In this document: in pieces, positions 8,081 through 43,633 of the stretch
Position numbering within the stretch: the first letter of the stretch is position 1
Layout of the letters: each line of letters opens with the position of its first letter
DNA from: Thermoplasmatota archaeon
Lineage (GTDB): Archaea > Thermoplasmatota > JAKEGO01
Direction: 5' to 3'
Assembly: GCA_028279595.1 (NCBI GenBank)
Contig: JANQNK010000004.1
Location: forward strand, 1 to 64,000
DNA: 64,000 bases
Notes under the pieces: generated by a model
The model's input: the letters and a program-made list of their open reading frames with translations, nothing else
The model's database searches: none
What the model was told of the DNA's origin: nothing
Program-made: the position numbers and the translations under genes

Positions 8081-8417
8081 GTTATCGTTGATTGGTTTCC
8101 TTATCAGTATAAGGTAATATTGGAACGATTCTTTATAGAGTCCTGTCTGCAATACTGAAGCCTCAATTGACTAGATGACTTCAGGGTGAACCGTATGGAG
8201 TATTCATTCTGACGTAAATTCCAGGGGTTGCCGTGATTTCAGTTTCTAATAATTGAACATTTATTATACGGGATTACGGTGCCCTAATCCCCCTTCCCAC
8301 GTTTCTTTGAAGAAATGTACATTATAATATCAATTTAAAGTTTCAGAGGAGCGGGGTCGCTCCCCATTTACCTTTTTTTTAATGGATTATTATCCCATAT
8401 CTCGTTCCTATCCCTAT

Positions 8418-10129: not shown

Positions 10130-11077
10130 CTAGACTCTTAGTTTAGGGATGTACGAGAGGTACATCCGACGTAGCTCAGCGGCATCGATATGATGGTAAA
10201 TGTCTATTGCCTCTGCACGACGATCGCCTCTAAGCTCCTTGACGTGCTCTCTCGGCATTCCGGATCGGATGAGATGCGTGGTGAACCAATGCCTGAGACA
10301 GTGAGGGCCGAAGTGGTCCTCAAATTTATCAGAGTTGGGATTGTGAAATCCGAGCTTGATTGCCGGATTGACGATGGCTTTCCATGCCGCGTTTCGGGAG
10401 AGTCGTGATCCTGTCTGGTAACTCACGAAGAGAGCATCAGTGTTCGTCAGGAGTTTGTCACGGACACGCATCCACCTTTGGAGTGCCCTCGAAGCCTCGT
10501 CGTCGAAGAATACTCGCCGGTTGGACCGCTTTGGGGTGGGTTTAAGCATAAGAGATCCTTCGGACCAATTGATATCGCCGACATCGAGCTTGAGCATCTC
10601 GCCACGACGGATACCCGTCTTTGCTAGAAGAAATATCATTGCCCTGTCGCGGGGATCCATCACTGCACTCACTAGAGCTGAGAGCTGTTCAACCGAAAGT
10701 AACTGACGCGTCGATTGCTCATGCCCGTTCTTGTAACGCTTCAAATAGCGCTTTCGGAACGGGAGAACGAGGTTCTGGTCAACATGTCCGTCGAACAATA
10801 GGTAGTCATAGAACGACGAGAGAACTGAGAAATAATTCTCGAGTGTTTTGAACTTGACCTTCCGTTCCTCCATCAGGTATGATAGAAATTCCCGAAGAGT
10901 GTCCACATCAAGGTCCAATGGAGTGATATTGTGTTCACCGAGATATTGAATGAAGATTTTCAGACTCGTTTGATAGTGACGAATCGATTCCATGGTCATG
11001 TTCTGCAATTTGCAGTCTTCGACGTATGCTTCTAGCAAGTCATCGGGATCCATTTTCTTGCCCTTCTTCTTAGGCAT
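10130..11077 (-). CDS. Tyrosine recombinase/integrase (XerC/D superfamily)
   Basis: N-terminal SAM-like domain; KTGIRRGE (Arg), HCLRH (HxxR), ELRGD, IDIYHH (Tyr). Start moved to ATG 11077, overlapping the upstream TGA. Confidence 0.93.
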   Translation of the reverse strand: MPKKKGKKMDPDDLLEAYVEDCKLQNMTMESIRHYQTSLKIFIQYLGEHNITPLDLDVDTLREFLSYLMEERKVKFKTLENYFSVLSSFYDYLLFDGHVDQNLVLPFRKRYLKRYKNGHEQSTRQLLSVEQLSALVSAVMDPRDRAMIFLLAKTGIRRGEMLKLDVGDINWSEGSLMLKPTPKRSNRRVFFDDEASRALQRWMRVRDKLLTNTDALFVSYQTGSRLSRNAAWKAIVNPAIKLGFHNPNSDKFEDHFGPHCLRHWFTTHLIRSGMPREHVKELRGDRRAEAIDIYHHIDAAELRRMYLSYIPKLRV

Positions 11078-11622
11078 CACGAGCCCCTCCAACGCCATTT
11101 GTTACCAAGACATTCAACGACACCTATCTGTTCTAAAATCTCCAGCTGGATCGAGATTGCATTAATGAAATCAGATTGTGTTGATTTTATCCCGAGCTTC
11201 CGCATTATGTCTTCTTGAGTGAGCGGATTGGTAGAGGACCTTAGTATTTCGATGAGTTCTGGATCGAATGGCCTTGGTCCTTCGAAGTCATCGTCGAGGA
11301 AAGGTGCAGAGCGATAACGTTTCAACTCGGTGTCGAGAGAATCACTGAGATTGCGAAGCATGCGATTCTCCTGTTCAAGTTCCTTGACCATTTCATCCCT
11401 GATTTGAATCTGTTCAAGGAGTTCGAGTCGGGAAGGTCCCTTGTCCTCATCAACTTCTGTATTAAGTGAATCCATCACTCTCTGAACGACGAACTTTGAG
11501 ATCGACAGGTTCTCGTTGATTGCACGAGCCTTCCATTCTTCTGCTAACTCGACCGATGGTAAATACACATACAAAGCACGTTGTTTTATTGTCTCGGTCT
11601 TCCCTTTATTTGGTTTCCCCAT
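11077..11622 (-). CDS. Integrase-associated protein: ribbon-helix-helix + coiled coil + winged HTH
   Basis: ALYVYLP-helix-NLSISKFVV (RHH pattern), heptad segment, LTQEDIMRKLG...LEQIGVVE (wHTH); TGATG coupling to the integrase. Confidence 0.7.
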   Translation of the reverse strand: MGKPNKGKTETIKQRALYVYLPSVELAEEWKARAINENLSISKFVVQRVMDSLNTEVDEDKGPSRLELLEQIQIRDEMVKELEQENRMLRNLSDSLDTELKRYRSAPFLDDDFEGPRPFDPELIEILRSSTNPLTQEDIMRKLGIKSTQSDFINAISIQLEILEQIGVVECLGNKWRWRGS

Positions 11623-16640: not shown

Positions 16641-19600
16641 TTAGTCTCCCATGGCCTTGTCGAGGTCCTCCATCATCTTGTCGTAGTCGTCGGGTCCGGA
16701 GTCATCGGATGCCTCTTCGGCCGGGGCATCGTCCACAGGTGACTCGGAAGGTTCGTCCATCGGTGGTTCGTCGGCAGGGGATTCCTCTGAAGAAGGTTCG
16801 GGGGCCGGATCATCGGTGGCGGCCAATGGTTCCTCGGCAGGAGGTTCGGTTGGAGGTTCATCAGCAGCGGTCGGTGGTTCCTCAGCGGGATCGTCCTTTG
16901 TTGTTTCCTCGTAGAGTTCGTCCTCGGCCGACTCTTCGGGAGGGGTGTCATCCGGCGGTCCATCGACGGGGGTGTCCTCGGAGGGTGTGTCGGCGACGTC
17001 TTCTGAAGGCTTGTCCTCGTCTGGGGTTTCCTCGGAGGGTTTGTCATCGTCGGAGGGTTCGTCCTCCTTCTCCTCTCCATCCTTTTCCTCCTTGTCCTCA
17101 CCCTCCTTGTCCTCGCCTTCCTTCTCCTCGTCGCCCTCCTCCTTGTCCTTCTCCTCGGTCTCGCCCTCCTTGACCTCCTCCTTCTTGCCCTTGGCGGCCG
17201 GCTTCTTGCCCTTCTTCTTTTCGGCCTCCTTCTTCTTCTTGGCTGCTCCGGGCGGGAGGATGCCCTTCTTGAAGAGGACGATGATGAGGAGCACTGCTAC
17301 GACTATCAGGATCAGCAGGAGCGCGATGGCAGCTCCTGCGCCATCGTCTTCCTTGTCCTTCTCTCCGGAAACGGGTTCGACGTAGAACGCTGGTGCGAAC
17401 ACCGTGAAGTGGGTCACGTTGGCCCACATGTAGTTCTCCTCGGTGTTGATGCCCCATACCTCCGGGGTCACCCATTCCTCTCCGTCGTAGTAGTACAGGG
17501 TCAGGTCTGCCTCGTCCTTGCCCTTCGGTATGTTGGACTCGTCGTACGGGATCTCGAAGTATGCCCAGACCATCTCCATGGCTGCCGGTGCGCTGATGTT
17601 GACGAACACGCCGACATCCCTCAGCGTCTCGGGCATGTCGGGTTCCTCCTCGAGGAGCCCGATGCCCACATCACCGATACCGCTGTATGCGATCACGAGG
17701 TGGATACCTGCGTTGTCGTAGGTCTTGATCTCGTTGATGACGGTCAGGTTGCCGCCATCCAGATAGACTTCCGTGATCCCGTCACTGGCGGAGAAGTTGT
17801 ACAAATAGGTGCCCGGCTCCATCGATATGCCCGCGGTGTAGACAACGCCATCCTTGTATCGATTATCCAGTTCCTCCCTGAACATGAGGAACCCAACACC
17901 GTTCAGTAACAGGGTCACATGATCGGGTCGGTCGTTGTCGATATCAGTGTAGACGACAGAGAGATCGAAGGTCTCACCAACGAAATTCCATGATGAGGAT
18001 GCCGTGCCATTGGTAAGAACAGGTGGGGCCAATCCCTTAACCTCGGGTCCGGTCACGTTGTCGGTGAATACATGGTTCAATCCATCGGAACAGAACATCC
18101 AGAAGGAGTGGCGGTCGGCCGGCAGATCGTCGAAGGACCTGTAGTACAGGGTTCCGTTGCCAATGGGGCCACCTTCGAACATCGGGTATCTGACGCCATC
18201 TACCTCGAGGGTCATGTCGGACGTTGGGTCATCGTCCTCGTCGGCGTAGACGACCGTGAAGTTGTATGTGTCTTCGGTCGTCCCGGTGACCGGTGTGACC
18301 GCTGGATCTAACAGCATCGGGACATGGTCGATCACGGTGTACCCGTATGTCCTTGTCATGGAGGTCGGTCCGATCAGCTCCATCGTGACGTTGTAGGAAC
18401 CCCGAGGCGAAGCAGGAATGAGGAATTCGAATTCGGTCTCCGCCTCCTCGTCGAGATCTTGCTCATCCTCCAGGATACCGTTCAGGAGAAGCCTCATGGT
18501 CGTGTTCACCGTCCCGAAGGTGGTGGCTGTGACGGTCACTGTGTCACCTAGCATGTAAACGTCCTTGTCCGTTCCTATACCCAGTATGATGACCCCCTCG
18601 ACGTCGAAGGTCTCAACCCCCTGGTCAAGCCGCAGGTATTCCTCGCCCTCGGCCCAGTAGAGTCCGTAGTTCATCGTATAGACCCCGGGTTCGACCCCAT
18701 TGATCGGGATCGAGATGGTGAAGAAGTTCATATCCTCATGTACAAGGATGTCGTTCTCGGACGTGGTGATCGGCTCGTCCCTTGAATCGTAGATCCAGAA
18801 GTTCAGGTATCCAGTGAATTCATCCCTGCTGTCGATCGCAATATCCAGAGTTACCGTATCGTTAAGCTCGTAGGCGGCCTTGTCCATCTCGATCTCGTCG
18901 ATCTTCGCATAGAGCCCGTCGATCTCGAAGCTGAACATTCCGGGGATGCTGTCGAACGTGTATCTCATCTGATATGTGCCGGCGGCCAACTCTGGGACAG
19001 TGTACTCAAGTACGCCAGGACCGTCGATGTACGCGTCGACGGTCTCGCCATCGGGGCCGGTCACGTTCAGGTCTCCGGTCCTGTTGGCAACTACCTGCAT
19101 CCTCATCGTCTCCCCGGGTTCGTACACCTGTTCCTCCGGATAGATCGAGATTATCGCGGACATGACGCTTACGTATAACGAGCTGAGGTAGAGCGCGCGA
19201 CCCGTGTCCATGTAAACGCCGAAGAACACCTTCTTCTCGCCGACGTCCTCCAGTGGCAGCAGGAACTCAGTGGTCTGCTTCTTCCCGAGATCGAAATGAT
19301 CGATGTACTCGACCCCATCGAAGGTCGCCTTCACGTACATACCAGTAAGGTTGACGTCGAGGCTCTTGGCGGTCGTGTTGATGACCTCGATGGTCAGCAG
19401 GGCGGACTCGCCGGACTGGTATATCGGTGAATCCGTCGATGCATTCACCTCGAAGCTGATCCCCTCGACCGCTAGGGTCGACTCCCAAGTTGCAGTGCCG
19501 ATAGAGTAGTACATGTCGTAGTCGCGGCCTTCGAGGTCATCCGGGATCGGGACCGTGAAGTATACCGTCGTGCTCTCCTGTGGATCGAGGTCGAAGGGTT

Positions 19601-34600: not shown

Positions 34601-37600
34601 AGTATTCTACAACGATTATCGAATCCTCGTCCAAGGCCCGGTCGAATATACCCATGTCGGCGAAGACCTCGGTGAAGTTGACCATCAGCCGGACCTCTGC
34701 GTCCGTCCGGTTCTCCCCGGATGTGTTGATCTTCAATGGCATCCTGTAGCGCAGATTGGTGCTGTACCACGGGCTCTCGCCCTCCATCTCGCTGAGGTCC
34801 GACGAGAATGCCTGGACCAGCAGTGTGCCGTTCTCGATGGCCTTGCCGATGTTCGTCACGTTCACCATTATCTCGACGCCGTCGGCAACATAGTACACGG
34901 TGTCGTTCGCCGCCACGGTCATATGGGCCTCCAGTCCGTCGATCACGAGCGTTGCCGTAATCTGGATGAGGTCCCCGGTCTCGGTGTCCTTGGCGTTGAT
35001 GAGGGTGAAGTACTCGCCCGAAAGGGCCTGGTCGAAGATGTCGTATCCGAAGGTGATGTTCTCGTCGGCCATTATCGAACCGTTCTCCTCCATCCTCGTG
35101 AACCTCTGGTAGTGCGGATCGAAGATGTCGAGACTGAAGGTGTAGTTGGTATCGACACCGCCGTCGTTCCTCAACATGACGTCCAGGGTATCCTCGATGC
35201 TGAAGGAGAGGTTTGCCAGGTGGAGTTCGAGCTGCGAGGACGGTATCGTGAACTGGAACTCGTGATAGGCCGTTTCGTTCTGGGTGACGGTTACGTTGAT
35301 GAGGTGGGCGCCAGCCATGAGATATGTCGGAAGGGCGAAGACGGCCGACTGAGTGCTTCCATCTCCCGAGTCCAACAGCACGTTGTAGGCATCGCTGTCT
35401 CCGGTCTCGGGGATCGATATGACGATGTCAAGGTTCTGCTGCCATACTCCGGAATCGGTGATATTGAGGGTGTATCCAAGGTCCTCGCGGATGCGGTAGG
35501 AGGGCTTGTCCAGGTCGACGGTCAGGGCGTACCTGTTGGGGAGATCCACCCGTCCGGTCAGGGAACGGACGTCCCACAGCACCTCGTAGGCGAGGTAGTA
35601 CGTCCCGAAAACAGGCTCCGGCACGGTGATGTTGATCTCCTTCGATATCTCTCCATAGGCTGGTATTCCGAAGGAGCTGTTGACCATGGCGAGCTCGACG
35701 TCGTATGGATCGAACAGCTTGACGGAGAGCTTCGCGCCGGTCGCCGGGAGGGGACTATCGTTAGAGATGTAGACAGTGAACGTGTTGTTGGTGTTCGGAA
35801 CGATCGGATCCGGCAGGTCGACCTTCCGGACGAGGAGCTTCGGTCCGACCTCGATGAACTTGCGGTCCAGGGTCTGTTGACGAGATCCGCTGAACAGTCG
35901 TGCGCGGACCATGTACTGGCCGAACTGCATCGGGGCCGTCATGTCGTAATACTTGATCTCAGTCGAGTGGGCGGGCACTGTGATGTATGTAGTCGCCGAG
36001 CTGTAGGTCGTCTGCTGCAATCCGTCAAGGATGTCGAGGTATATCGTGTAGCTGAGTTCGTTGGCGTTCGGATTGTAAACGGACATGCTTACATTGATGG
36101 TCTCGTTCGGAGCGTAGTCGTCAAGGTTCGTGATGATATTGATTATGCTGGCTTGGCCTTTCAGTACGCCGTACCGGCGCTCTATGAAGGCGATCTGGTC
36201 CCCTGACCAATCGGATCCGGTGTACAGATAGGAGACCGTTCTGAAATCCCACTGCGAGGTCGCAAAGCGTTCCGTGTACTCGCCATAGGAGTTCGGGGCG
36301 ATGTTGACGTTCACCTTGTGGTACCAACCGTTTGCAGCGCCGCCGTAACCCCACCATAGGACGTGGCCCCTGCCCCACACACCGAACTTGACGCTGCCAT
36401 TGAACCAGGTGTCCTCGTGGTTGTTGATGAAGAACGTGACGAACCCAGGTTCGCCTCCGTCATCGTCGGGGCTTCCGTACGAACCTGTGACGTAGTAGTA
36501 GTTCTTGTCGAAGACCACCCAGAAGTCCACACCTTCCGGTATCACCTTCTTCAATGATTCGTTGAAGTCGCTTAGAGCAAAGGCATCGACGTCGTTCACG
36601 ACCGTGATGTTGTGGAACCCGTTATCGGCTCCGATGTAGTCGACCCGGTAGACACCGTGATCGTCGTATCCGGCGAGGTCGTTGAAACTCCCACCGACAG
36701 CTTTCACGCAATCTACGACCGTGCCGTTCGGTCCGATGATTATGGCGTACTCCGCTTCCATACCGGTCGAGTTCATCTCGAGCGGTATCGGGGTCTCGGG
36801 CTCGATCGTCTCTACGCTCGATGGTTCCGGCACCATGAGATAGGAGAGCATCGCGTCGAGGATCTCGATCTCGTCCGAGGTCCCGGACCCGAAGACCATC
36901 GCGAAGTCAGGATACATCGTCGTGGCCATGATGTACCCGTTCCCGTATGGATACATGACCATGGCCGGCATCTTGTTCGCGGCCCTGGTCAGCAGAACGG
37001 TGGCGTTCGTCGGCCAATCCATGAAGAAGCCGTCGATGTTCAGATCGAGGTAGACCTCGCCCTTGGAGTTCGGGGCCTTGACCTGGGACATCGGAGAGAA
37101 GACCGGATTGTAGTTCTCGATGTAGACGGAGCCGAGGAGACAGTTCTGGTCCTCCTGGTAGCCGTACCCGTCGAGTCCGCCGGGGAGTCCGGCCCACTCG
37201 TATCCGTACTGCTGGGTCATCGCAAGGATGTTCCCGCCGTTCTCGAGGAAGAGTTCGAGCTTCAATCTGACGATGTCCGATCCGCCGGAGGGATCGGTGA
37301 GGTCGTAAAGACCGCCCGAGGGGACGACAAGGACCTTCAGTTCGTTGAGCTCATTGATTGTTATGGTTCCGAGGTCCACGAATCGAGCATCGCGTCCCGT
37401 GCTGTTTATCAGCGTCATCATCTCGTTCGGGAATCCCTTGTCAACGATGCCGATCTCGGATTCCGGGGCATCCGTTGAGGTCACGTTGACCACATTGCTC
37501 CCGAGGACGAATACGTCGTCCGGATTGTAGGGCGGACAGTCCTTGGGGTCCTTGCATGGATCACAATTCGGCTGGTATGGGTCCTCGCAACACCATCGCT

Positions 37601-40600
37601 CCTTGTAATCCTGGATATGGCTACATTTATCACGTCGGCATTTCTTGTCGTCTGGGTTGATACAACATTTCTTGTTGTCACCTTCCAGCTCGTCGCAGCA
37701 CTGGCCGGTCTCGGGGTTCGGATCCTTGCACTCATCGCACTTGATCTTCATCCTGACCGTGTGTTTGGGGCGTTTACTGTCGTCGGTGGTCCTCTGGAAG
37801 ATGCAGCCGTACTTGTCGACCACCTTCATCTCGTAGTTCTTGGTCTCGCCGGCCGGTATCGTGACACGGTGCGTCCCCTTCCAGACGTCTGTATCCACGT
37901 ATTCGGCGGGATCGAGCTTTTCGATGATGGCGGTGAAGACCACGCCGCCATCCTCCTTAAGGGACACCTCTATCCCTTTACTTGGAACGGTACCGAGATT
38001 GTAGACCTCCATGTTTATGTCGTAGACACACGGTTCGTTGTTCTCACCGCCCGAGACCTTGACGGCCCGTATCTTCGCCCTGGGTTTGACCTCGCATTTT
38101 CGACCTTTGTCGGCAATGTAATCAATGAGCTTCCCGACCTGGGGACATATCAACTTGTTGCCGAGCCACCGGGCAGCGTAGAACGTGATCCTGTAGATCA
38201 GTGGAGCCGTCGCCGCGCCGATCCCAACCGTTAGTCCGGTGACGCCGGTGACCATGATGTTCCCGAGGGTAGCGTCGGCGATCAACCCTATGATCTCACC
38301 GCAGGCCCAGTCGAAGACTATCGTTAGGAACAGGCGTATACAACACCAGATGTACGTGGCGACGTTGAGCGCGGTCGCTGCCGATCCGAGGACACATTCG
38401 ACGAAACGCCAAACTTGGATTATGGCTTTCGCTATCTTTGGTATCAGGTCCAGCGGGATACCGAGTACGTCTCCGATCGGGCCCAGGATCTCAGCTGCGA
38501 AATCGAGAGCGCCCTCGATGGTATTACGGAACCATTCGAGACCTTCCCTCTCGCCTCTCCAGAGCTTTCGGAAGTTGTTCAGGACCTCCTGGACCTTTGC
38601 CTTTGCCTTGTAATACAGGTTCTTGATGATCGATACTGCCTTGATGCCCAGTTGCTTGGCGATGGGCTTTATCACCTTCCATTGCTCAACGATCCAATCC
38701 TTGATGTCGCCCGCAAGGGCCCAAAGGTCCTTGATCACCTTGATGAACCAGATGGCGTGCTGGTATTGGGTCGACAGAACGATGTTGGCGACGGCGCCGG
38801 TCTCAGGATCGACTATCCTGAAGGCGTAATAGAGCACACCGTCGACGATTATGCCGGCAGCGATGATGTCGACCTCGTATCCAAGGTCGATCGCATCCAT
38901 TATCCTCTCTAGGACCTGAGAGGGAAGCGTGACGTTCGCCAGTACTTCTTCGTAGTTGTCGGGCGTGATGTGAATTACCGCAATCCCAACCTGCGAGGCT
39001 ATCCCGAGCAGGTCCTCGTAACTCACGGCCCGGGTCTCGTTGAAGATGATGGCACCGACCATCGACTCGATGTAGGACGAGTATTCGCCCGAGTTCAGGG
39101 TGAACAGATAGTCGGCCGTGACCGGGTCCCGCTGCTCCGGGCGGAAGCTCGCCTGGACGGGATCCCTGAGCAGGTCCAGCGAGTACAACGGTGCGAAGAC
39201 AAGAGGTGCCCCGAATCCGAAATAACCGCCGCTGTTGGCGATGACCGCCGATGGGCCTGGGCGCCACCACCATCCGAGGAGGTCCGCAGCCTCGGTGTCG
39301 TAGCTCTCAGCGACCCAGACGTGGAGCATCGTTGCGGCCATCTCGAGATAGGCGTCTGTGGCGTCAGAGAGGGAGGCGTTCTCGACATCCCCGTGGTTCT
39401 CGAGTCGGAAGTTGAGGGTCCTACCGTTCATCTTTCCAACGTCGAAGCTGACCACGGAATCCGCACCGGCCACCGATACGGAGTTGGTGGTGTCCTCGCC
39501 CCAGGGCGCAGTGAATGTGATTGTGAGGTCGAGCGTATCACCGCCGTGGAGCACCATCGACGAGGTATCGATGGTCCTGGCGTTCATTTCGAGTGCCGGG
39601 GTGTAGCCTATCAGGAAGGGGGGAGCATCCCTGCCCATCTCGTCGATCAGGTCCTGACCGGTAGAGGTCGGCTCATACCTGATGTGCATCGGGAATGTGG
39701 CCATTCGCCCGGCGAAGCCGGAATAGCCCACCACGGAGGTGCCGTTATCCTTCAAAGTGACCGTGATCGTATGGCGCAGCGCGGTCGGGACCTCGGCGTA
39801 GTTGTCCGCTCTGGCCGTTACCGTATAGTTGAGACCTGTCGGGAACGCTGTCCTGTTGGAGACATCGGGCTCCTCGTAGGCGCTGAAGTTGGCGGCCCCC
39901 GAAACATAGGTAGTGCCGTCACTGACGAAGGTTCCGTTGATGGCCTCGAGGTCCTCGAAGTTCCATGACGGGTCCATCTCGACCCACTCCCCGTCCACCC
40001 AGGCCGCAACCCAGTGGTGCTCGAATATGATATCCGAGCCCATCATGTCGGCGGGTATCCCGCAGGACCGGAGGATAGCGGTCGCATTCTCCTGGGTATC
40101 GGTCCGCAGCCAATCTGCGACGTCGGCCCAGGGCGCTCGAACAGTACCGAAGACATACCGGCTGGCCACGTCCCTCTCGCGGAGCATGGCGATCAGTAGT
40201 GACGCCTGGTCGACATCGTTGCCGGACCTCTGCATAAGGGTCTGGTCCGCTCCCTTGAGCGACCCGAGGTACGGCTCATAGGCCACACCCTCGAGGACCC
40301 ACCAGAAGAGCTTCTCGACATCCATCGAGTTGGCCTTCTGATACACGGACTCGGATGACCAAGCATCCTTGGTCTCGTTCAGGTCCGCAGCCGTAGTGCT
40401 GACCGGCAGCGCGCTCGTGTCCATCACCGGTTGGTCCCCTCCATCGAGCTCGATGGTGAAATGTGACAGGGGATCGAGGTCAACACCCGAATCGGGGTCG
40501 GCGACGGTCGCTTCGTACACGACGTCCAGGACGTCCTGTATCTCAGCCTGATAGTTGCGGATGGATCGGAGTACCGCAACTTCACTGATGTCCTCGGGCC

Positions 40601-41285
40601 TCGATAGGATCGGAACTATCGTCTCTTCGAGCCAATCGGCCCGGCCCAGGACATCGTCCATCTCCGTCCGGTACGAGGTCAGAGAGGTCGAGAATGAAGC
40701 GTAGGCTTCATCCATCTGTGAGTCATTTCCACCGGCCATATCGCCAAGGAAATCGTCATAATCGTCGGAGATATCGATGAACTCCCCATAGGATGCCTCG
40801 AGCTTTTTGATGTCGAGTATCGTTGTTATCGTGTGGGCCTTCACGTATTCGAGGTACGACCCTCCCTCCTCGCTCTCGATGCCGAGCGCCACGGCCGCCT
40901 CGTTGCTGACATCCGTTATCTCTAGGGTCTGGGAACCGCAGAATGAACAGTTATCGTCCTCCTCCTCCTCGGGTTCCTCCTCTGTCGGATCGATTATCTC
41001 CCTGTAAAGGTTCTGGAGATCGAGGGTAAGGTTGTTCAGGTTCTCCTGCACGGCCATGAACGATCCGTAGAACTCTGCTGATTCGTTCAGGTAACCGGTC
41101 CTTGTTTCATTTCCCTCGTCCTGTGCGATCGGTACTGCGGCAGCGGCACCGCTGTCTCTCTTCCCATCGTCGGCGAATGCCAGGGCCTGAAGGTAGGCTC
41201 CGGCGAAGGTCGACGAAAGCAGTAGCACGACAAGGGCTACGCTGACGAACATTCCTCTCTTTCCAACACTAAATCTCCATCTCAT
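16641..41285 (-). CDS. Giant (~8,200 aa) membrane-anchored multidomain surface glycoprotein: transglutaminase-like, GATase-like, Ig/MG2-like, CUB, F5/8-type C, FG-GAP, CARDB, PGF-pre-PGF-like
   Basis: One uninterrupted ORF; signal peptide; many NxS/T sequons; motifs detailed in the findings; TM helix at 17272-17334 followed by a Lys-rich then acidic tail. Start chosen at ATG 41285 (GGAGA upstream); the track starts at TTG 41312. Confidence 0.92.
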   Translation of the reverse strand: MRWRFSVGKRGMFVSVALVVLLLSSTFAGAYLQALAFADDGKRDSGAAAAVPIAQDEGNETRTGYLNESAEFYGSFMAVQENLNNLTLDLQNLYREIIDPTEEEPEEEEDDNCSFCGSQTLEITDVSNEAAVALGIESEEGGSYLEYVKAHTITTILDIKKLEASYGEFIDISDDYDDFLGDMAGGNDSQMDEAYASFSTSLTSYRTEMDDVLGRADWLEETIVPILSRPEDISEVAVLRSIRNYQAEIQDVLDVVYEATVADPDSGVDLDPLSHFTIELDGGDQPVMDTSALPVSTTAADLNETKDAWSSESVYQKANSMDVEKLFWWVLEGVAYEPYLGSLKGADQTLMQRSGNDVDQASLLIAMLRERDVASRYVFGTVRAPWADVADWLRTDTQENATAILRSCGIPADMMGSDIIFEHHWVAAWVDGEWVEMDPSWNFEDLEAINGTFVSDGTTYVSGAANFSAYEEPDVSNRTAFPTGLNYTVTARADNYAEVPTALRHTITVTLKDNGTSVVGYSGFAGRMATFPMHIRYEPTSTGQDLIDEMGRDAPPFLIGYTPALEMNARTIDTSSMVLHGGDTLDLTITFTAPWGEDTTNSVSVAGADSVVSFDVGKMNGRTLNFRLENHGDVENASLSDATDAYLEMAATMLHVWVAESYDTEAADLLGWWWRPGPSAVIANSGGYFGFGAPLVFAPLYSLDLLRDPVQASFRPEQRDPVTADYLFTLNSGEYSSYIESMVGAIIFNETRAVSYEDLLGIASQVGIAVIHITPDNYEEVLANVTLPSQVLERIMDAIDLGYEVDIIAAGIIVDGVLYYAFRIVDPETGAVANIVLSTQYQHAIWFIKVIKDLWALAGDIKDWIVEQWKVIKPIAKQLGIKAVSIIKNLYYKAKAKVQEVLNNFRKLWRGEREGLEWFRNTIEGALDFAAEILGPIGDVLGIPLDLIPKIAKAIIQVWRFVECVLGSAATALNVATYIWCCIRLFLTIVFDWACGEIIGLIADATLGNIMVTGVTGLTVGIGAATAPLIYRITFYAARWLGNKLICPQVGKLIDYIADKGRKCEVKPRAKIRAVKVSGGENNEPCVYDINMEVYNLGTVPSKGIEVSLKEDGGVVFTAIIEKLDPAEYVDTDVWKGTHRVTIPAGETKNYEMKVVDKYGCIFQRTTDDSKRPKHTVRMKIKCDECKDPNPETGQCCDELEGDNKKCCINPDDKKCRRDKCSHIQDYKERWCCEDPYQPNCDPCKDPKDCPPYNPDDVFVLGSNVVNVTSTDAPESEIGIVDKGFPNEMMTLINSTGRDARFVDLGTITINELNELKVLVVPSGGLYDLTDPSGGSDIVRLKLELFLENGGNILAMTQQYGYEWAGLPGGLDGYGYQEDQNCLLGSVYIENYNPVFSPMSQVKAPNSKGEVYLDLNIDGFFMDWPTNATVLLTRAANKMPAMVMYPYGNGYIMATTMYPDFAMVFGSGTSDEIEILDAMLSYLMVPEPSSVETIEPETPIPLEMNSTGMEAEYAIIIGPNGTVVDCVKAVGGSFNDLAGYDDHGVYRVDYIGADNGFHNITVVNDVDAFALSDFNESLKKVIPEGVDFWVVFDKNYYYVTGSYGSPDDDGGEPGFVTFFINNHEDTWFNGSVKFGVWGRGHVLWWGYGGAANGWYHKVNVNIAPNSYGEYTERFATSQWDFRTVSYLYTGSDWSGDQIAFIERRYGVLKGQASIINIITNLDDYAPNETINVSMSVYNPNANELSYTIYLDILDGLQQTTYSSATTYITVPAHSTEIKYYDMTAPMQFGQYMVRARLFSGSRQQTLDRKFIEVGPKLLVRKVDLPDPIVPNTNNTFTVYISNDSPLPATGAKLSVKLFDPYDVELAMVNSSFGIPAYGEISKEINITVPEPVFGTYYLAYEVLWDVRSLTGRVDLPNRYALTVDLDKPSYRIREDLGYTLNITDSGVWQQNLDIVISIPETGDSDAYNVLLDSGDGSTQSAVFALPTYLMAGAHLINVTVTQNETAYHEFQFTIPSSQLELHLANLSFSIEDTLDVMLRNDGGVDTNYTFSLDIFDPHYQRFTRMEENGSIMADENITFGYDIFDQALSGEYFTLINAKDTETGDLIQITATLVIDGLEAHMTVAANDTVYYVADGVEIMVNVTNIGKAIENGTLLVQAFSSDLSEMEGESPWYSTNLRYRMPLKINTSGENRTDAEVRLMVNFTEVFADMGIFDRALDEDSIIVVEYSADNTIKWVVESEVKAGVPLASDLFHNTYSPKPKFLYLVGSRTDYNLAARTTGYYQSVKRVQYNDAEASTIIEDLDDYDIVIMDGIQATSEFDIGNQDTQDTIVDYVTEGGVFIFMCPTISMDVFGVHHVSGWRNDNVVLVDDDHPLADISGGQSYNGWSYSETNGYWTNWESDDFDPIYVDSADTDEFGVTLERFIGDGTLILEAQEVGYPYNTQGTWKARNMFRYATQFGHYLDRAYDAENNALVQITWTMNGTTNDTASRFYSVYFNSRTGDDLPMDPVIEAPEGFYNVRVLDEYVNASEEVQVSFGFWNETNNTLYSIMYSFDSNGTMGDGNWTQAEVIEAATETPTTAGWSKGYYWQYTYGLKPVAGYAGTYDTDNSGYASYNNYLPDDDFYDNEILFFDGYRYNNYVDSVIDGAASGHMVVTDHYTFEEVLRRVTYAGIKSFVSHSTTSHFIYHGGGIIVDGDHDDDGYLGYDWDDYSAVQQEDLGAHFKALYDDAFIFKAILPPAGMTTTTYFYIVTQDTINDTWENSTVQSYFVDGEGPAIDDILTYPTTPLLDTMDPIDVTASLSDDTGVQSVSLHFTYDGDDVWTGEKVMEDMAGAGVDQYVYGVESTHPYDSNVDDWYTITETGVGAIRVHFTKIELEQGLDKVRIYDGSENLIQTITGRHEDLWTDWVDDDVLLIRFTSDTGISGYGFHADVYETDDSWGAFMAYDEEYEDHLNSGDHYIGDSRASNVAYVNVYVDDPEDIVRATLTISTGGIDHDTDGVWFNEPNRTAGNVLGTLEVGSTSNVFEVPFDTILDGTNTIAIVAGTLNGLDPEGNSFMWNEDLDIYDVTLRVWYANVPYNATEVAYYVTAIDLAGNTAMSPTYTAYLDTPAWIGDPVPDPFYPTGDDDVTVSVPITDSQGIEEAVLIYGVQSSPWNIATTEMGATITANDYYSSQFAPEEAIDGLGEDGSTQQNYWLTSNYYSGAYLELEFDRTYLVDTVNLLNTRNAGYWDRSTGNFRLSVSLDGVEFDVVHSGTLVEDDIVNWYTANLNPVAARYMRFHVDSYFGAGGGLAEIEVYAAYNWSYGIMDNTGDIYSAEIPATGNTTWVYYYIIVNDTLGHQTTSIGNYYVTDDTPPDIWTISSIPTVPSANMPIDVSAFASDNLGLDGYTLHYGYDGVNYTEVEFEPRSDTTDIDEDGEPEIVLGTYYGNYIINKTWGIEHNPDGGYLYTRGSAYAIADTDMDGVPNLISANSDTDGTFAQVYQWNGSGYDLQTTLGDEVDHSYDTSVFTIDVGDIDGNGIPDIVIPAYYDRIYVYEWAGYDYQLKYMFRTSIYPRDMELVNIDDDPAEEIIIGRDWYRFEVYDLVEGVLELVWYSDDIDFQYMEIGDLDGDGLNEIIVGTYRQLHIYEIGMDGIELEYQSGDLGYYIYVSDVWDYDGDGRNEVAVYGYEDWYVPPSGPTVYFFNTTVYEFYDESDYEDELIVVDDIISYRTSSFHSLRVPHWGDFDSDGEVEVVYADNNYNWLHVYNFTGNGTPEETNYFYTTGHSYQSITSSGVPRDLIARIPGASGGTLYYYIEVEDLAGNVNTTEVFTVDIDLSAPSIDDHTEYGTDRNAYDYIPIEADISGGDVLGAYLVHNATGTETRVRMYENVNENGSVLHYADCGLVDEEYLVQGDPVSLWKALWPHTTKAERTVRSHDSQVIYRFPVDPDDHYVVEVTYLQNAGEERTQRLLSGSYVVHGPISLPEYKPNNYRLPVPMDSYSDGNMTLVFESLTGINAVVSEITVIEYMTEPTVNYRAYIPPSYDEIDVEYYVETADMAMNTARSPMSSYTTYFANRPPVITDIIETPSGNDIVISAEITDSDGVNGATLFSSTDMETWTSAAMTSSVDTWSATIDTVTVDDRVYYYIEATDGDGLINKTPIFRTNLPVVALVVDHPAALSQGEHAAVFLLSENNFRVELIDDDSADVTNLSAYEIIVVVNSWDLDGDDIDTLIDDHGVSVVLLWYGAYSLGSSGSYSSYGYLYGSSDEAFMEPYHGSRVTVQTFQDVNLYCLYWYNTYPSGWTPLDQQGAYWFSGYRENMTSGGRGAIYPYVPHRLTSEGEAVFSSVMTWAANEDVVRREIPAGNAVLVIQSEHEEIPYLTEREAQTASMLEDHGYTVTYVSDHEVGIYDMSNAALIVMTEWAVDDHVGSLMVQDWIDSGLKVLLLSYGGRNIGGTWSYGTSTSYYNSVIIDSTGYLSDYDSYTFTTLTDTRYDFIYADIPANWTVASYSNTANYYGMLYQENGTSGGKGAVFVFDPRYLADDGQWLFNLTIDYLEDVSQPTIQIDSGKVAFIISSYDYQAPSLTSREMEVRDLLNRYGFDIQYISAKEARRGDYSNAEFVVMAEYNTWNYIRSSFIHGLIDDGVSIGLFAYAAQGMGGSWSWSTDYRMRQFFGENDTAFASGLKDLSFYTTLTTNTPYIYANYPAGWTYIGRNVYSVDHKTAFIRENMTSGGRGAILTYDVFDLNTYGRHLYRRTFDYLANNSWPEDAVEHGTAVLVVEDITSRDPTLTSRERAVDTLLKDNGYDVTYLSHIELRNVDLTNALLVAVPHRYGGLSPDGTYYNQMIDSGVNLLLMYNSGESYGGSWGASTTGNYLNAGVMSDTAFLEGFHSFSMTMQSGGYAYRLSNDPPYGWTTIARNLYSGERHTMFYNESSVSDGRGAMITYDPLYFTIEGKEVFRQATAWLARHPAPAYTVPSGNALILTANADPSIMNNREVTAGDMLEDRGYTISYYGQYLAEFIDYSNVSMVVMAGYNSWKILGNEWAIGLIDSGTPLLMLADAATTISTSGWGWSTTANYLRLVTESATGFLEDYGGYNFQVQTGGAWRFSSSSIPSGWTWIGRNAYSGERKTAIIHDNTTIGSRGVILTFDPYYYNYAGRLLFNRTIDWIEHKETPYHTFSSDVVIATVSEDYLTPTLSSNEANVRDRLIAAGYTVDYISHKEIKRADFSGVRAVFATGYSSYYPVGKTFMDGIVDNGVGLGLIYNGGYLISTSSWGSSSTGNYLRLVTESTTGFMEEYGGFNSHMMYAGTAYRVSNPSWVGWSVIGRNAYSGERKTCLIRDTGSGSAVGAVFTYDPRYLTVQGNDTFDRLVAYVMEEPVDKVRFSSGAAVLIIVSDDDETPTLSARESAVDGYLDDLGYTVEYISRHSARNAIYDNASIVVMPSYSGDYSHGSAFFNGLIDDAIPVLLLGPAGYTYGGSWSGSTTTQYLNLYVEDNSNVLSDYTVGSVHTVQSPATAYRISNPALAGWTVRGRNNYSPERKTVLTRENATTGGRGVMFTYDPQYYYSVGRNIFNDSVVWAINGTMPVADLQVDFVSKSAAVYMGDIYINATVTNYGDTLWRPTTFHTAFYENGNLIGVTRESVPDGGDSIVTTLIWRDINTGHNIKVVADIAGTVDESNETNNEHTSFTNIFRPDLTVTDIWWDTVPNSGRTMDVNVSVYNDGNDCYESFYVDLHADGYPIARQTVTSIMSAETLNLTFPWHTMGDSTTLTVTVDPTGRVNEDNETNNSRTEAIYVSGVDLEIFAVGYTPATDDGERVDFTVRVENSGDVACGAFYVGMLMDGVHIESKRVNGLNGTTWEDVLFTWLARAGHLNLTFVADHGDDIREDDETNNEWDETHSAVTIPDLTINDVWYDVRTYHNLDGITFEVDVQNTGGDTLHQIQLGLYVDGVLDSLVNVTGTEDGYEVTVPIMWWSRTGNHTVTIVVDPHDICDESDENDNDWSQAFHVIGPDLIVTDLTWYPTPFIDGDYYQLNATVYNAGGWDAEVPFTVDFQINGSSIGADSIDMLGSRGSAVATFTWRATPGIWDFTAETDSTDTIAEYHEDNNDRTETMPEVFASNLIVSDLSYSYLVDSDPVGTLSDGDVLIFNATIENTGASVHRDFVVRFYRDGTLLTEYDNGVNSDGFTINGLNETDTYYVEFMYIVRQGLENYTVTVDADSQVEETNENDNDHTIQPTIAERDYNGTRIPVMYGSSINVSIEVLGYINSGSDCQSWIISPLSRVTGWYIYDASSWGERKMSYIADSEGNWSVGLWYQYERWDYVIRINVTDPNGTEITYTHAGWAGSWFTNTVNYYLYVNGTADLFTYDSVITAQEGDVVEIEVTTKSYSYHSYDGFAKLRYSESDPGVWDSVWAVAGWYSQVQHFGQRTITYVLESNGTYCLDMYYSHFYWTYEVTILINGVEAASHSGTAGSSTSSHRHYFINVTDTGYDRYTYDEIVDVPAGSRLRVNLTTITSTDPTYDGHLRIYDGDGTVQRSYLADSRAWDPERVLEVDLNTNGSWYIYVHFDRYAWNYRLDVEIVLPNGTVQHYSHEGYSGTQVHTRYYYFNVTNATGEFGNGDTISAVEGSLLSVEVVSEFWSYDWTYAYFYLYDEIGGIVNQKGEYPINYGTRTFKWYFDEPGTWRIRMSYGNTYWNYKIIVTVLDPGTGMEATYIDQSCTGSAVGERNYYIDVAPEPTVKTFTGQTQPKYTAILYGVNPLWNATFGVNITELEAQQFLMYPNASDMGATGKLYLLTSLLNVYGQVISQNVTSIYITNSSVYLTLDLNKKAYKVGETIYINATLFNDGNETENMTVMIYDGETLLTEETLDLDAYTTYVVQAETGAAVTTDITGIVIINPPPGPLDAGDGSAQNSSVTEHVPVLEPSVDVSITAPDEVGLAPFNMTVLVENTGTVDADITVRITEDHVVTVPVGETSTVKETLTITEDTWFTVNVTGDVEDEFYVLVEMVESNEISVEPEVVYSAGSVEVWYYVNNTGDIDSTFDIVFEAVDVDGWSTADSATEQVTVNSGGSVSDNTVWNLTVGHYLMNWTSLFGSGSEDLFVADENTAELELEIEVTEGELNASVIVLNIGSNEIVGDLSMVTDFYTEERSVNVPLWGELQEDFILDISALDPETYNLSIILSVGGQEIVVIDTNMTIPTAEFEAQVTSPLVATLGTNYTAAILVINVGKIAGTDNLELSIPGIHADLEPFDLDPQESTTVYFTVPIPDDLEGRDYDMYYSIGTATWESTLAVEGISFEVNASTDSPIYQSGESALLTIEVINTTAKSLDVNLTGMYVKATFDGVEYIDHFDLGKKQTTEFLLPLEDVGEKKVFFGVYMDTGRALYLSSLYVSVMSAIISIYPEEQVYEPGETMRMQVVANRTGDLNVTGPDGETVDAYIDGPGVLEYTVPELAAGTYQMRYTFDSIPGMFSFEIDGLYAKIDEIEMDKAAYELNDTVTLDIAIDSRDEFTGYLNFWIYDSRDEPITTSENDILVHEDMNFFTISIPINGVEPGVYTMNYGLYWAEGEEYLRLDQGVETFDVEGVIILGIGTDKDVYMLGDTVTVTATTFGTVNTTMRLLLNGILEDEQDLDEEAETEFEFLIPASPRGSYNVTMELIGPTSMTRTYGYTVIDHVPMLLDPAVTPVTGTTEDTYNFTVVYADEDDDPTSDMTLEVDGVRYPMFEGGPIGNGTLYYRSFDDLPADRHSFWMFCSDGLNHVFTDNVTGPEVKGLAPPVLTNGTASSSWNFVGETFDLSVVYTDIDNDRPDHVTLLLNGVGFLMFREELDNRYKDGVVYTAGISMEPGTYLYNFSASDGITEVYLDGGNLTVINEIKTYDNAGIHLVIAYSGIGDVGIGLLEEEPDMPETLRDVGVFVNISAPAAMEMVWAYFEIPYDESNIPKGKDEADLTLYYYDGEEWVTPEVWGINTEENYMWANVTHFTVFAPAFYVEPVSGEKDKEDDGAGAAIALLLILIVVAVLLIIVLFKKGILPPGAAKKKKEAEKKKGKKPAAKGKKEEVKEGETEEKDKEEGDEEKEGEDKEGEDKEEKDGEEKEDEPSDDDKPSEETPDEDKPSEDVADTPSEDTPVDGPPDDTPPEESAEDELYEETTKDDPAEEPPTAADEPPTEPPAEEPLAATDDPAPEPSSEESPADEPPMDEPSESPVDDAPAEEASDDSGPDDYDKMMEDLDKAMGD
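22650..24590 (-). repeat. Six tandem CARDB-like domains within the giant protein
   Basis: Each starts with a (P/A/V)DL.v or SNL.v motif and ends D....i.E..E.N/DN. Confidence 0.85.
24600..28850 (-). repeat. Seven ~205-aa alpha/beta (class I GATase-like) repeats within the giant protein
   Basis: A GxGAvlTYDP-type motif recurs at about 615-bp spacing (~28350, 27740, 27130, 26510, 25895, 25280, 24665). Confidence 0.8.
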
Positions 41286-41585: not shown

Positions 41586-42506
41586 GTGGTGGTTTGTGTA
41601 AAACGTATGTTAGCCAGCGGTGGCTTTGTCGGCGCGATCGTACTTGTGGTCGTGTTGATATTGCTCATGACATCTGAACAGGCGAGCGGGCAGACGATGA
41701 ACGAGATAATCATCAGGATTACCGAGACCAGTGGTGAGGTGGATGTCGAGCCGGGGAATCCCACCAACGGTATGTTCTACATGAACGGAACGGTCCGGAT
41801 CAAGAATCAAACAGACCCCCACATTGTTGTTACACAGACCATCTCTGCTGGCGGGTGGCCTTCGAACATTCATCCCGGTGGATTCGACTTCTGGGCTCAT
41901 GAGAGAGAGAACCGTGTCAAGCCATTCGCTGTCAGGATCAGAGCTCCAATCGGATATTCGACGAAGGTCTCTCAAAACGTCATTCTAGGGGGTTCATGGC
42001 AGGGTTCGGAAGGATTGGTGGGAGATCTCGACCAGAAGAGTTTCATCATCTTCGTCAAGCAATACTTCGCAGCTATGATCGAAGCGCCCGAACTTCACCT
42101 GACCGATGGTGGAAAACAGGTGTCAATCCCGATCTCATTATGGAATACCGGAAACGGTGTTGATGAGTTCTCTTTCAGGATCGAGAACCGGAGGTTCCTC
42201 GAAAAGAAGGGATGGACGATAGGTAGGACCGAACCTGTGGTCATCGAGGAGAAGATGAATACCAATTTCAAGATCAATGCACGAGCTCCAGAGGAGGCGG
42301 GTACGTACGAGTTCGTCTTTAACGTGACGTCTCTGGGATCGATCGAGAGGGGTGACAATTACACAAGATATTTTCTGAAGGTGTTCCACGTCAAGGTAGA
42401 GGTCGACAAGACATTGGAGATCTCATTGATGCTTATCGGAGGTTCCGCTGCAGTAACGACTGCGGTATTCTGGAGATGGAGGAAAGGGAGTTGGTCCTAT
42501 GCGTAG
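41586..42506 (+). CDS. Secreted two-Ig-domain protein with C-terminal TM (choice-of-anchor T-like)
   Basis: Signal peptide; VDVEPGNP, NTGNGVDEF; C-terminal hydrophobic helix + WRWRK; clear paralog of the next gene. Confidence 0.7.
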   Translation: MVVCVKRMLASGGFVGAIVLVVVLILLMTSEQASGQTMNEIIIRITETSGEVDVEPGNPTNGMFYMNGTVRIKNQTDPHIVVTQTISAGGWPSNIHPGGFDFWAHERENRVKPFAVRIRAPIGYSTKVSQNVILGGSWQGSEGLVGDLDQKSFIIFVKQYFAAMIEAPELHLTDGGKQVSIPISLWNTGNGVDEFSFRIENRRFLEKKGWTIGRTEPVVIEEKMNTNFKINARAPEEAGTYEFVFNVTSLGSIERGDNYTRYFLKVFHVKVEVDKTLEISLMLIGGSAAVTTAVFWRWRKGSWSYA

Positions 42507-42688: not shown

Positions 42689-43633
42689 ATGAACCGACGC
42701 GACTTGAGGGTGTTCGCCCTGATTCTATTCGTAATAATATTCAGTCTATCGATGATGTTTTTCATACAGCCAGCGGAGGGACAGACCATCATCCCTGTTG
42801 TTAATGCACAATTCGATGATTCCTCGAAGACAGCGGACGTCGAGCCGGGAAATCCTTCCGGCGGTATTGTCAAGAACACCGGAACGATCCATTGCGATTG
42901 TGGCAGTCAGCCACAGGTGGATGTCAGCCTGACCATTTCGGCCGGAGGATGGGGTGCTGCGATAACTCCCAGCAGCATGACCTTCGTCTGGGGAGGTGAA
43001 GAAGAAAAGCCGTTCTCGGTGACGATAGCCGCACCGGAGGGCACGAGCCACAAGGTCGCCCAGAATGTCATTGTCGGGGGTTCATGGACCGGCTCTCTAG
43101 GATTGGTAGGTGACGTTGACGAAACCAGCATGATCGTTTTCGTCGAGCAGTACTTCGATTTAGTACTGGAGCTTGATGAGCCGGAATCCATCGCGCCAGG
43201 TGGAGGCGGAAACATATCATTCCAAATATTCAACCTGGGCAACGACGAGGACGATTTCATCGTTGATGTGGACAATCTGGCAGACCTCGCCCGGGACGGG
43301 TGGTCAATCCCGACCATTGGAAAACTGACCATAGAGGAAAAAGGAGCCCGGAGGATCAGTATCTATGTAAGTGCCCCCGATGAAGAGGACACATACCATT
43401 TCGAGATCACTGTGACCTCGGAGAAATCGCGGCTTGCGAATCCGGATGACGAGAGATCAGCCTCGCTCGATGTATTCGTCGAGGTCAAGAAGGGGGGGTC
43501 AGGTTCTGGAGGCGGGGGCGGTGGATCGAGTGACGACGACGATGGACTGCCTTTCCTTTCGCCATTCGAATTGATGGCAATGGTATGTGTTGTCTCGTTG
43601 GCCCATCGTCATCAAAGAAGAAGATCATCATAA
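42689..43633 (+). CDS. Secreted two-Ig-domain protein (choice-of-anchor T-like) with PGF-CTERM-like sorting signal
   Basis: ADVEPGNP, NLGNDEDDF; Gly/Asp linker, then LPF + hydrophobic stretch + RHQRRR. Confidence 0.72.
   Translation: MNRRDLRVFALILFVIIFSLSMMFFIQPAEGQTIIPVVNAQFDDSSKTADVEPGNPSGGIVKNTGTIHCDCGSQPQVDVSLTISAGGWGAAITPSSMTFVWGGEEEKPFSVTIAAPEGTSHKVAQNVIVGGSWTGSLGLVGDVDETSMIVFVEQYFDLVLELDEPESIAPGGGGNISFQIFNLGNDEDDFIVDVDNLADLARDGWSIPTIGKLTIEEKGARRISIYVSAPDEEDTYHFEITVTSEKSRLANPDDERSASLDVFVEVKKGGSGSGGGGGGSSDDDDGLPFLSPFELMAMVCVVSLAHRHQRRRSS

Follow-up and report, generated by a model that had tools for sequence, protein, structure and literature searches.

A Lineage-Restricted Helical Module in the Head of a Giant Archaeal Surface Protein and Its Possible Role in Membrane Docking

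Introduction

Little is known of the purposes that giant surface proteins serve in uncultured archaea. The window analysed here, a stretch of 64,000 nucleotides from a Thermoplasmatota archaeon (lineage JAKEGO01; assembly GCA_028279595.1, contig JANQNK010000004.1, positions 1 to 64,000 of the forward strand), contains on its minus strand one uninterrupted open reading frame (ORF) of 8,223 amino acids (aa; 16641-41312). In the N-terminal head of the encoded protein a helical module of about 240 aa (aa 852-1089) was identified. On the evidence of sequence comparison, this alpha-helical module is an orphan domain that is inherited vertically and restricted to a few rare Thermoplasmatota lineages. 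Its features point, with medium confidence, to a module by which the adhesin head docks to or inserts into a membrane, and it is a compact candidate for the membrane-contacting part of such a protein.

The original prediction, made from the DNA sequence of the region 38095-38753 on the minus strand, which encodes aa 853-1072, described a cationic, Trp-rich module resembling the leaderless bacteriocins aureocin A53 and lacticin Q, followed by a hydrophobic hairpin of the colicin kind, and proposed a membrane-inserting toxin or fusogen that was possibly exchanged recently. What the module has in common with aureocin A53, lacticin Q and colicins is compositional, and membership in these groups is rejected on the basis of sequence, gene organisation and position. 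The 8,223-aa protein has a signal peptide and a single strong C-terminal transmembrane (TM) helix and is therefore a giant surface protein of type I with its anchor at the C-terminus. The module is located in the head at 10-13% of the ORF, 7,100 aa ahead of the anchor. In the literature searched, no description was found of the module or of a head combining a pseudo-transglutaminase with hydrophobic helices.

Anatomy and Distinctness of the Module

The module is encoded on the minus strand and comprises roughly nine helices. It begins with Trp-rich, here also Lys-rich, amphipathic helices (aa 852-954; 38451-38759), which are hypervariable and carry indels at their N-terminal end; in this genome Lys/Trp-rich helices are present in the first 55 residues. 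Two hydrophobic hairpins follow. Hairpin 1 (aa 955-1002; 38307-38450) consists of two helices and an uncharged tip, and contains the invariant Cys973, a YIWC motif with Cys990, and Arg993. Hairpin 2 (aa 1003-1050; 38163-38306), with arms of about 16-18 residues each, contains the invariant Cys1004 and Asp1013 and a Gly/Ala-rich tip with the motif TGxTxGxGxAxAPLIY. The module ends in a cationic C-flank (aa 1051-1089; 38046-38162) with the invariant Cys1056 and Cys1073, which has a net charge of +7 here. A glycine-zipper membrane peptide or toxin was considered for the invariant TGxTxGxGxAxAP of hairpin 2 and was ruled out: its small residues are spaced i, i+2, with one GxxxG only, which fits a hairpin tip better, and no Pfam match was obtained.

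It had been noted that, right after the motif DPETG, the acidic protein switches to amphipathic and then hydrophobic helices with spaced Cys. The peptides in question are present on the minus strand, the change in composition was confirmed, with DPETG lying 13 residues ahead of the first amphipathic helix, and six Cys residues proved to be invariant in four orthologues. The protein as a whole contains 1293 Asp and Glu versus 441 Lys and Arg residues, and 60-aa windows across it have a mean net charge of -6.2 (standard deviation (sd) 4.7). A net charge of at least +4 is reached by eight regions of the protein, three of which are located in or beside the module. Trp accounts for 5.5% of the residues in aa 852-960 versus 2.0% protein-wide (2.7-fold). 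The helical hydrophobic moment of aa 852-954 is the maximum of the protein, with a mean of 0.45 versus 0.19 and 0.29 in the next-best stretch; this corresponds to the 99.4th percentile and a z score of 5.3, and was reached by none of 2000 shuffles. Signal peptide and C-terminal anchor apart, TM-like hydrophobicity is confined within the 8,223 aa to two segments at about aa 980-1000 and 1019-1039, whose approximate Hessa sums on a simplified scale are marginal at +2.4 and +3.7, versus -5.2 for the anchor. The longest gap without N-glycosylation sequons in the protein (aa 793-1276) spans the module, at a protein average of 1.8 sequons per 100 aa, and none of the four orthologues has a sequon in its module. 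By Wimley-White interfacial hydrophobicity the module could not be told apart, since aromatic-rich beta domains score equally. The distinctness of the module from the rest of its protein is more than chance.

On the DNA level, the module had been described as AT-richer than its flanks. A difference is present, with a GC content of 0.548 versus 0.575 for the gene and a GC content at third codon positions (GC3) of 0.723 versus 0.782 (7th percentile, z -1.8). However, this mild dip in the GC3 profile is not unusual for the gene: equally low windows occur elsewhere in it, and the codon preferences of the module are those of the rest of the gene.

Relatives and Conservation

In a phmmer search of the module against 1.84 billion representative proteins, one relative was identified, P0003, a contig-truncated protein of 6,578 aa which is 51% identical and is labelled 'discoidin domain-containing protein, partial [Thermoplasmata archaeon]'. 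P0003 alone or no match was returned when 5.8 billion proteins were searched with word indexing. Whole-genome searches identified the module in 4 of the 401 sampled genomes of the phylum Thermoplasmatota, namely in each of the three genomes in the window's class and in one of the two in a second small class. The four genomes are of the sediment type. A scan of GTDB genome contigs yielded only two contigs from Thermoplasmata metagenome-assembled genomes, and these are the same loci as in the whole-genome searches. A scan of JGI metagenomes for the module gave no match, and no relatives of it were present in IMG/VR and in phage and plasmid collections. A divergent paralogue in one genome (G022) is 22% identical and still alignable. 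The alignment of the module is 4-5 sequences deep, and most of the relatives are contig-truncated.

The orthologues in the four genomes have the module in the same place in the protein, with 42-51% identity. The identity of the module equals the average of the whole protein, for which a mean of 51.6% (sd 12.5) was determined in comparison with P0003. The recent exchange that had been suggested does not agree with this average identity of orthologues in four genomes and two classes, nor with the native codon use and the lack of phage, plasmid or viral relatives.

The two halves of the module differ in conservation. In the comparison with P0003, aa 951-1100 are 56-62% identical, while in aa 851-900, where the alignment has 10 gap positions, the identity drops to 22%, near the minimum of the whole protein. 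No part of the module is less conserved than the segment that had been likened to bacteriocins, and its net charge in this closest orthologue is -3. Invariant in the four orthologues are Cys973, Cys990, Cys1004, Cys1056, Cys1073, Cys1095, Arg993, Asp1013 and the glycine-rich motif of hairpin 2. The variable half is amphipathic and contains 5-7 Trp residues in all homologues; its net charge across five homologues is +4, -3, +3, +8 and +7, so that this half is often, but not necessarily, cationic. Variability among homologues, which had been proposed as a check, is a property of the Trp/Lys-rich half, which is hypervariable, and not of the conserved hydrophobic half. A conserved hydrophobic half next to a freely varying yet Trp-rich amphipathic half was counted in favour of a membrane module. 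Neither hairpin tip carries a charge in any of the four orthologues, the C-flank has a net charge of +3 to +7 in all five homologues, and the first hydrophobic helix is more hydrophobic in the orthologues (sums 1.4-3.0).

A hidden Markov model (HMM) of the five homologues also matched two unrelated large, membrane-anchored proteins from other Thermoplasmatota, at aa 874-960 of L044 (G009:C13; E 1e-7) and at aa 1172-1270 of L045 (G076:C81; E 1e-4). These proteins were ruled out as members of the family, as they match by Trp/Lys-rich helices and lack the hairpins. Their helices may represent a recurrent helical element of the surface proteins of this phylum, or a compositional match.

Searches against Known Families and Structures

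With Pfam at E values up to 10, no family was identified for the 59-aa and 103-aa segments, the whole module, its halves or the four orthologues, and NCBIfam and PADLOC contained no significant model for the module. In PHROG, mostly sub-threshold matches to tape-measure families were found (E 0.045-0.65), in addition to two function-unknown families, each matched by one member (E 0.00039 and 0.0052); the PHROG matches were treated as compositional. A PDB-sequence profile search with the module returned de novo designed helical proteins only, which is likewise compositional, and the 59-aa segment (aa 852-910) gave only two unrelated chains with E above 1. At E up to 10, Pfam, NCBIfam and PDB sequences thus gave no sign that the module is related to aureocin A53, lacticin Q or colicins, and the reservation in the original prediction that the similarity might be only compositional was well founded.

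AlphaFold2 models, calculated from alignments of 4 and 5 sequences, show an all-helical module with a predicted local distance difference test (pLDDT) of 31-61. At these values, fold searches with Foldseek and VIA-align say nothing on the module. Foldseek on the first, low-confidence model gave no match at E 0.001 or better, which is uninformative on the fold, and the CARDB domain behind the module was the only part identified by VIA-align.

The Pseudo-Transglutaminase Head and Equivalent Modules in Other Families

The head also contains a transglutaminase-like core (aa 330-448; 39969-40325, minus strand; Pfam PF01841, E 2.3e-13), in which an Asp occupies the position of the catalytic Cys while the His and the Asp are retained. 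This core was aligned with those of nine other giant ORFs (L029-L037) from eight related genomes. In nine of the ten ORFs, which are all that cover the position (L036 is truncated there), the catalytic Cys (motif GN-x-x-DQ) is replaced by D, S, P or A, and His and Asp are kept. Judging from this alignment, the transglutaminase-like core looks like a family-wide pseudo-enzyme.

A search of the phylum with the transglutaminase-plus-linker region led to giant ORFs in several other families. In five other Thermoplasmatota families, a DPETG-type turn in giant pseudo-transglutaminase ORFs is followed by Gly/Ala-rich hydrophobic helices, and the turn, with the pattern [DNQ]-[PQR]-x-[TSDN]-G, recurs in distant giant ORFs. 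Signal peptide and any C-terminal anchor aside, hydrophobic segments are rare elsewhere in these ORFs. Position-equivalent modules were identified in L030 (aa 790-1020), L031, L033, L032 (aa 1110-1225), L034, L035 (aa 850-1000) and L037 (aa 1370-1400). In L032, a CARDB domain stands immediately after the hydrophobic module, as it does here; in L035, Lys-rich helices are located after the hydrophobic part, not before it. When the module was compared by hhalign with position-equivalent modules from two groups, the probability was below 1%, so that no homology was detectable. Some of the modules in other families are more hydrophobic than the one studied, with signal-peptide-like sums of -0.4 to +0.6. 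Because five other families have hydrophobic helices at this site of the head without detectable homology, it appears that the helices as such are retained there, whatever their sequence. The same-site modules suggest a general design of the head.

Proposed Role of the Module and Alternative Explanations

In the proposed mechanism, the helices would pass the Sec translocon with the rest of the ectodomain instead of integrating, owing to their marginal hydrophobicity. The Trp-rich amphipathic helices would then lie in the lipid interface, and the two marginal hairpins, whose tips are uncharged and rich in Gly and Ala, would enter or cross the bilayer from outside, while the cationic flanks would remain on the near side, against the anionic head groups. 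The pseudo-transglutaminase head would thereby be tied to a membrane, which might belong either to the cell itself or to another cell in contact with it. Uncharged tips and basic flanks are seen in hairpins entering a bilayer from the near side, on the principle of colicins and the diphtheria toxin T domain. It is this pattern, together with the Trp-rich amphipathic helices, which favours membrane docking or insertion. Interaction with a membrane, the direction of insertion and its consequences, such as anchoring, permeabilisation or fusion, are what we infer from these features. Of the membrane-active helical module that had been predicted, the expected features are present, namely Trp-rich amphipathic helices, two marginal hairpins and cationic flanks; the toxin role was not supported. 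A more far-reaching version of the proposal is unlikely: the module would be a novel archaeal insertion domain at the adhesin tip which plugs the head into the membrane of another cell on contact, leading to anchoring, permeabilisation or fusion, and the modules of the other families would be lineage-specific versions of the same device.

Several observations weigh against a membrane role. The amphipathic part is non-cationic in one orthologue (net -3). The Hessa sums were obtained with a simplified scale. The sequon-free gap also takes in the CARDB domain and a Cys-rich knot, and 3.7% of windows of the same size are sequon-free. The three-dimensional models of the module are of low confidence (pLDDT 31-61), and the neighbours found in the ESM Atlas, among them the picornavirus viroporin 2B, TrbL-bearing phage clusters and phage proteins, had scores of 0.77-0.81, which were often reached by shuffles. 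In addition, the invariant Cys, Arg and Asp residues inside the hydrophobic helices would also fit a packed, disulfide-stabilised soluble core. This leads to an alternative of somewhat low probability, already allowed for in the original prediction, in which the module is a static structural bundle, the buried core of a soluble spacer between head and stalk, without any membrane role. The six invariant Cys residues, Arg993 and Asp1013 within or beside the hydrophobic helices, the marginal hydrophobicity and the conserved place in the architecture are all in line with such a bundle, and with its roughly nine helices a domain of 240 aa would be able to bury two hairpins. However, four consecutive helices are nearly without polar residues, and the cationic flanks in a strongly acidic ectodomain and the enrichment in Trp are left unexplained. 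Moreover, the same-site modules of other families are as hydrophobic or more so without detectable homology, which argues for selection on hydrophobic helices and not on one fold.

Ordinary co-translational TM hairpins, with four TM helices (aa 955-1050) forming a second anchor in the cell's own membrane that holds the head at the surface, are a rather improbable explanation. An even number of helices would leave both flanks outside, the first helix has the higher hydrophobicity in the orthologues mentioned above, and some same-site modules in other families are signal-peptide-like. Yet the would-be cytoplasmic tips lack Lys and Arg and the flanks outside are strongly basic, which is the reverse of the positive-inside pattern of co-translationally inserted TM hairpins; the sums of both segments are positive and far from that of the true anchor, and the arms of hairpin 2 are short.

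It is very improbable that the module is an embedded pore-forming toxin of the bacteriocin or colicin kind, or a polymorphic effector cassette, which was recently acquired and serves to kill competitors. A composition like that of cationic Trp/Lys-rich peptides, the Gly-rich tip on a hydrophobic hairpin, the mild GC3 dip and the hypervariable N-terminal helices speak for it. Against it, no sequence match was obtained to the bacteriocin, colicin, Bcl-2, diphtheria T or large-clostridial-toxin pore families, including the Pfam family TcdA_TcdB_pore of large clostridial toxin translocation domains, and the cationic character is lost in one orthologue. Membership in the leaderless bacteriocins is rejected, since the segment in question is aa 852-910 of an 8,223-aa ORF and not a small free-standing gene, and no dedicated export or immunity genes are found among the neighbours. 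A colicin-type domain is rejected on the missing profile match, on the internal position, which is not the C-terminal one in a released toxin, and on the lack of a candidate immunity gene; the all-helical secondary structure with its hairpins is compatible with the ten-helix fold of colicins, which at the low pLDDT proves nothing. A polymorphic toxin or exchangeable cassette does not fit a module that is orthologous in four genomes, at average divergence and with native codons. The statement in the original prediction that no immunity gene is evident was confirmed for the neighbours of the giant gene, where the small ORFs upstream belong to a four-copy family unlinked to it.

A membrane-docking or membrane-insertion module of the head hence remains the preferred explanation. 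If it is true that the module inserts into foreign membranes, it would represent a protein family new to the interaction between archaeal cells; should it be no more than a structural core, it would be an ordinary orphan domain. In either case, the bacteriocin or colicin label should not be propagated.

Comparison with Known Systems

The pore-forming domains of colicins, the diphtheria toxin T domain and Bcl-2-type proteins are 'inside-out' bundles of about 200-240 aa with roughly nine to ten helices, including amphipathic helices, marginal hairpins with uncharged tips, and basic surfaces able to bind anionic lipids. The module is similar in length, in its number and kinds of helices, in its uncharged hairpin tips and in having basic surfaces that could bind such lipids. 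In contrast to these families, it has two hairpins instead of one and six invariant Cys residues, and no sequence match to them. Unlike colicin, it is an internal part of a membrane-anchored adhesin without an immunity gene, and not the killing end of a released toxin.

In large clostridial toxins, residues 956-1115 of TcdB form a hydrophobic alpha-helical pore-forming stretch of the translocation domain (PMC6978384). As in TcdB, hydrophobic helices are here present in a very large protein, after a papain- or transglutaminase-like fold and before beta-rich and repeat regions. However, the archaeal module has no Pfam match, the domain upstream of it lacks the catalytic Cys, and the giant protein is C-terminally anchored with no autoprocessing or delivered enzyme evident. 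The translocation region of TcdB is a useful analogy, but no more than that.

Aureocin A53 and lacticin Q, which are free-standing peptides with a length of about 50 aa, share with the beginning of the module the Lys/Trp-rich amphipathic helices, which in the archaeal protein are built into a giant ORF, are poorly conserved and can be non-cationic. Phage tape-measure and ejection proteins and TrbL/VirB6-type segments are comparable to the module in being helical, Trp-rich and Gly/Ala-hydrophobic, and sub-threshold PHROG matches to several tape-measure families (E 0.045-0.2) as well as the TrbL-bearing phage clusters in the ESM Atlas (0.77-0.80) are of this kind; none of these matches is significant. 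In contrast to these proteins, the module has neither a phage context nor phage or viral relatives.

Architecture of the Giant Protein and Its Gene Neighbourhood

In the giant acidic surface protein, Pfam identified Transglut_core, six CARDB domains, FG-GAP and CUB. Long plus-strand ORFs over the module region are antisense shadows. All of the following features of the protein are encoded on the minus strand. The N-terminal signal peptide or anchor (aa 18-47; 41172-41261) was recognised by hydropathy, with a hydrophobic core preceded by basic residues. Between it and the transglutaminase-like core, an acidic helical region is located. The linker domain between the core and the module is beta-rich and alpha/beta, and is closed by a conserved beta-hairpin (aa 828-846; 38775-38831), as seen from AlphaFold2 strands and conservation, which includes DPETG (aa 835-839). 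A sortase-like or Asp-Pro self-cleavage site was ruled out for DPETG, as the Pro is replaced by Arg in one orthologue and the motif acts as a beta-turn.

Immediately after the module, a CARDB-type beta-sandwich is present (aa 1090-1170; 37803-38045; Pfam CARDB, E 0.0025), which was modelled with a pLDDT of 65-87 and matched 3idu_A in VIA-align (Z 9.3, rmsd 2.6, 89 aligned residues). A Cys-rich knot (aa about 1190-1262; 37527-37745), identified by counting Cys residues in 50-aa blocks, separates the CARDB domain from the stalk. It contains paired CC motifs, with 9 Cys residues within aa 1201-1250, in a protein that is otherwise Cys-poor. The stalk behind it, of about 6,700 aa, is composed of FG-GAP, CUB, CARDB (CARDB/Ig-like) and other domains. 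The C-terminal TM anchor (aa 7987-8024; 17241-17354) has a Kyte-Doolittle value of 3.81, in addition to the Hessa sum given above. It is followed by a low-complexity cytoplasmic tail of about 200 aa (16641-17240), consisting of a Lys-rich juxtamembrane part and an acidic, Pro-rich stretch.

The neighbouring genes are archaeal in character, with a Cdc48-type AAA ATPase, a class I tRNA synthetase and a TrmB-like regulator. The giant gene itself is neighboured by the four-copy surface-protein family, a metallophosphoesterase and the tRNA synthetase. Members of the four-copy family are two paralogous ORFs of about 310 aa on the plus strand (41586-42506 and 42689-43633), which are located upstream of the giant gene and transcribed divergently from it. 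Each begins with a signal and has a hydrophobic segment at its C-terminus, and neither has a Pfam match. The four copies in this genome are found on C1 (twice), C7 and C9, weaker relatives are present in sister genomes, and the family shows no specific linkage to the giant gene. Downstream of this gene, the minus strand codes for a tyrosine recombinase (10130-11098; Phage_integrase, E 4e-27) and for a right-handed beta-helix/NosD-type protein of 1,399 aa (3953-8152).

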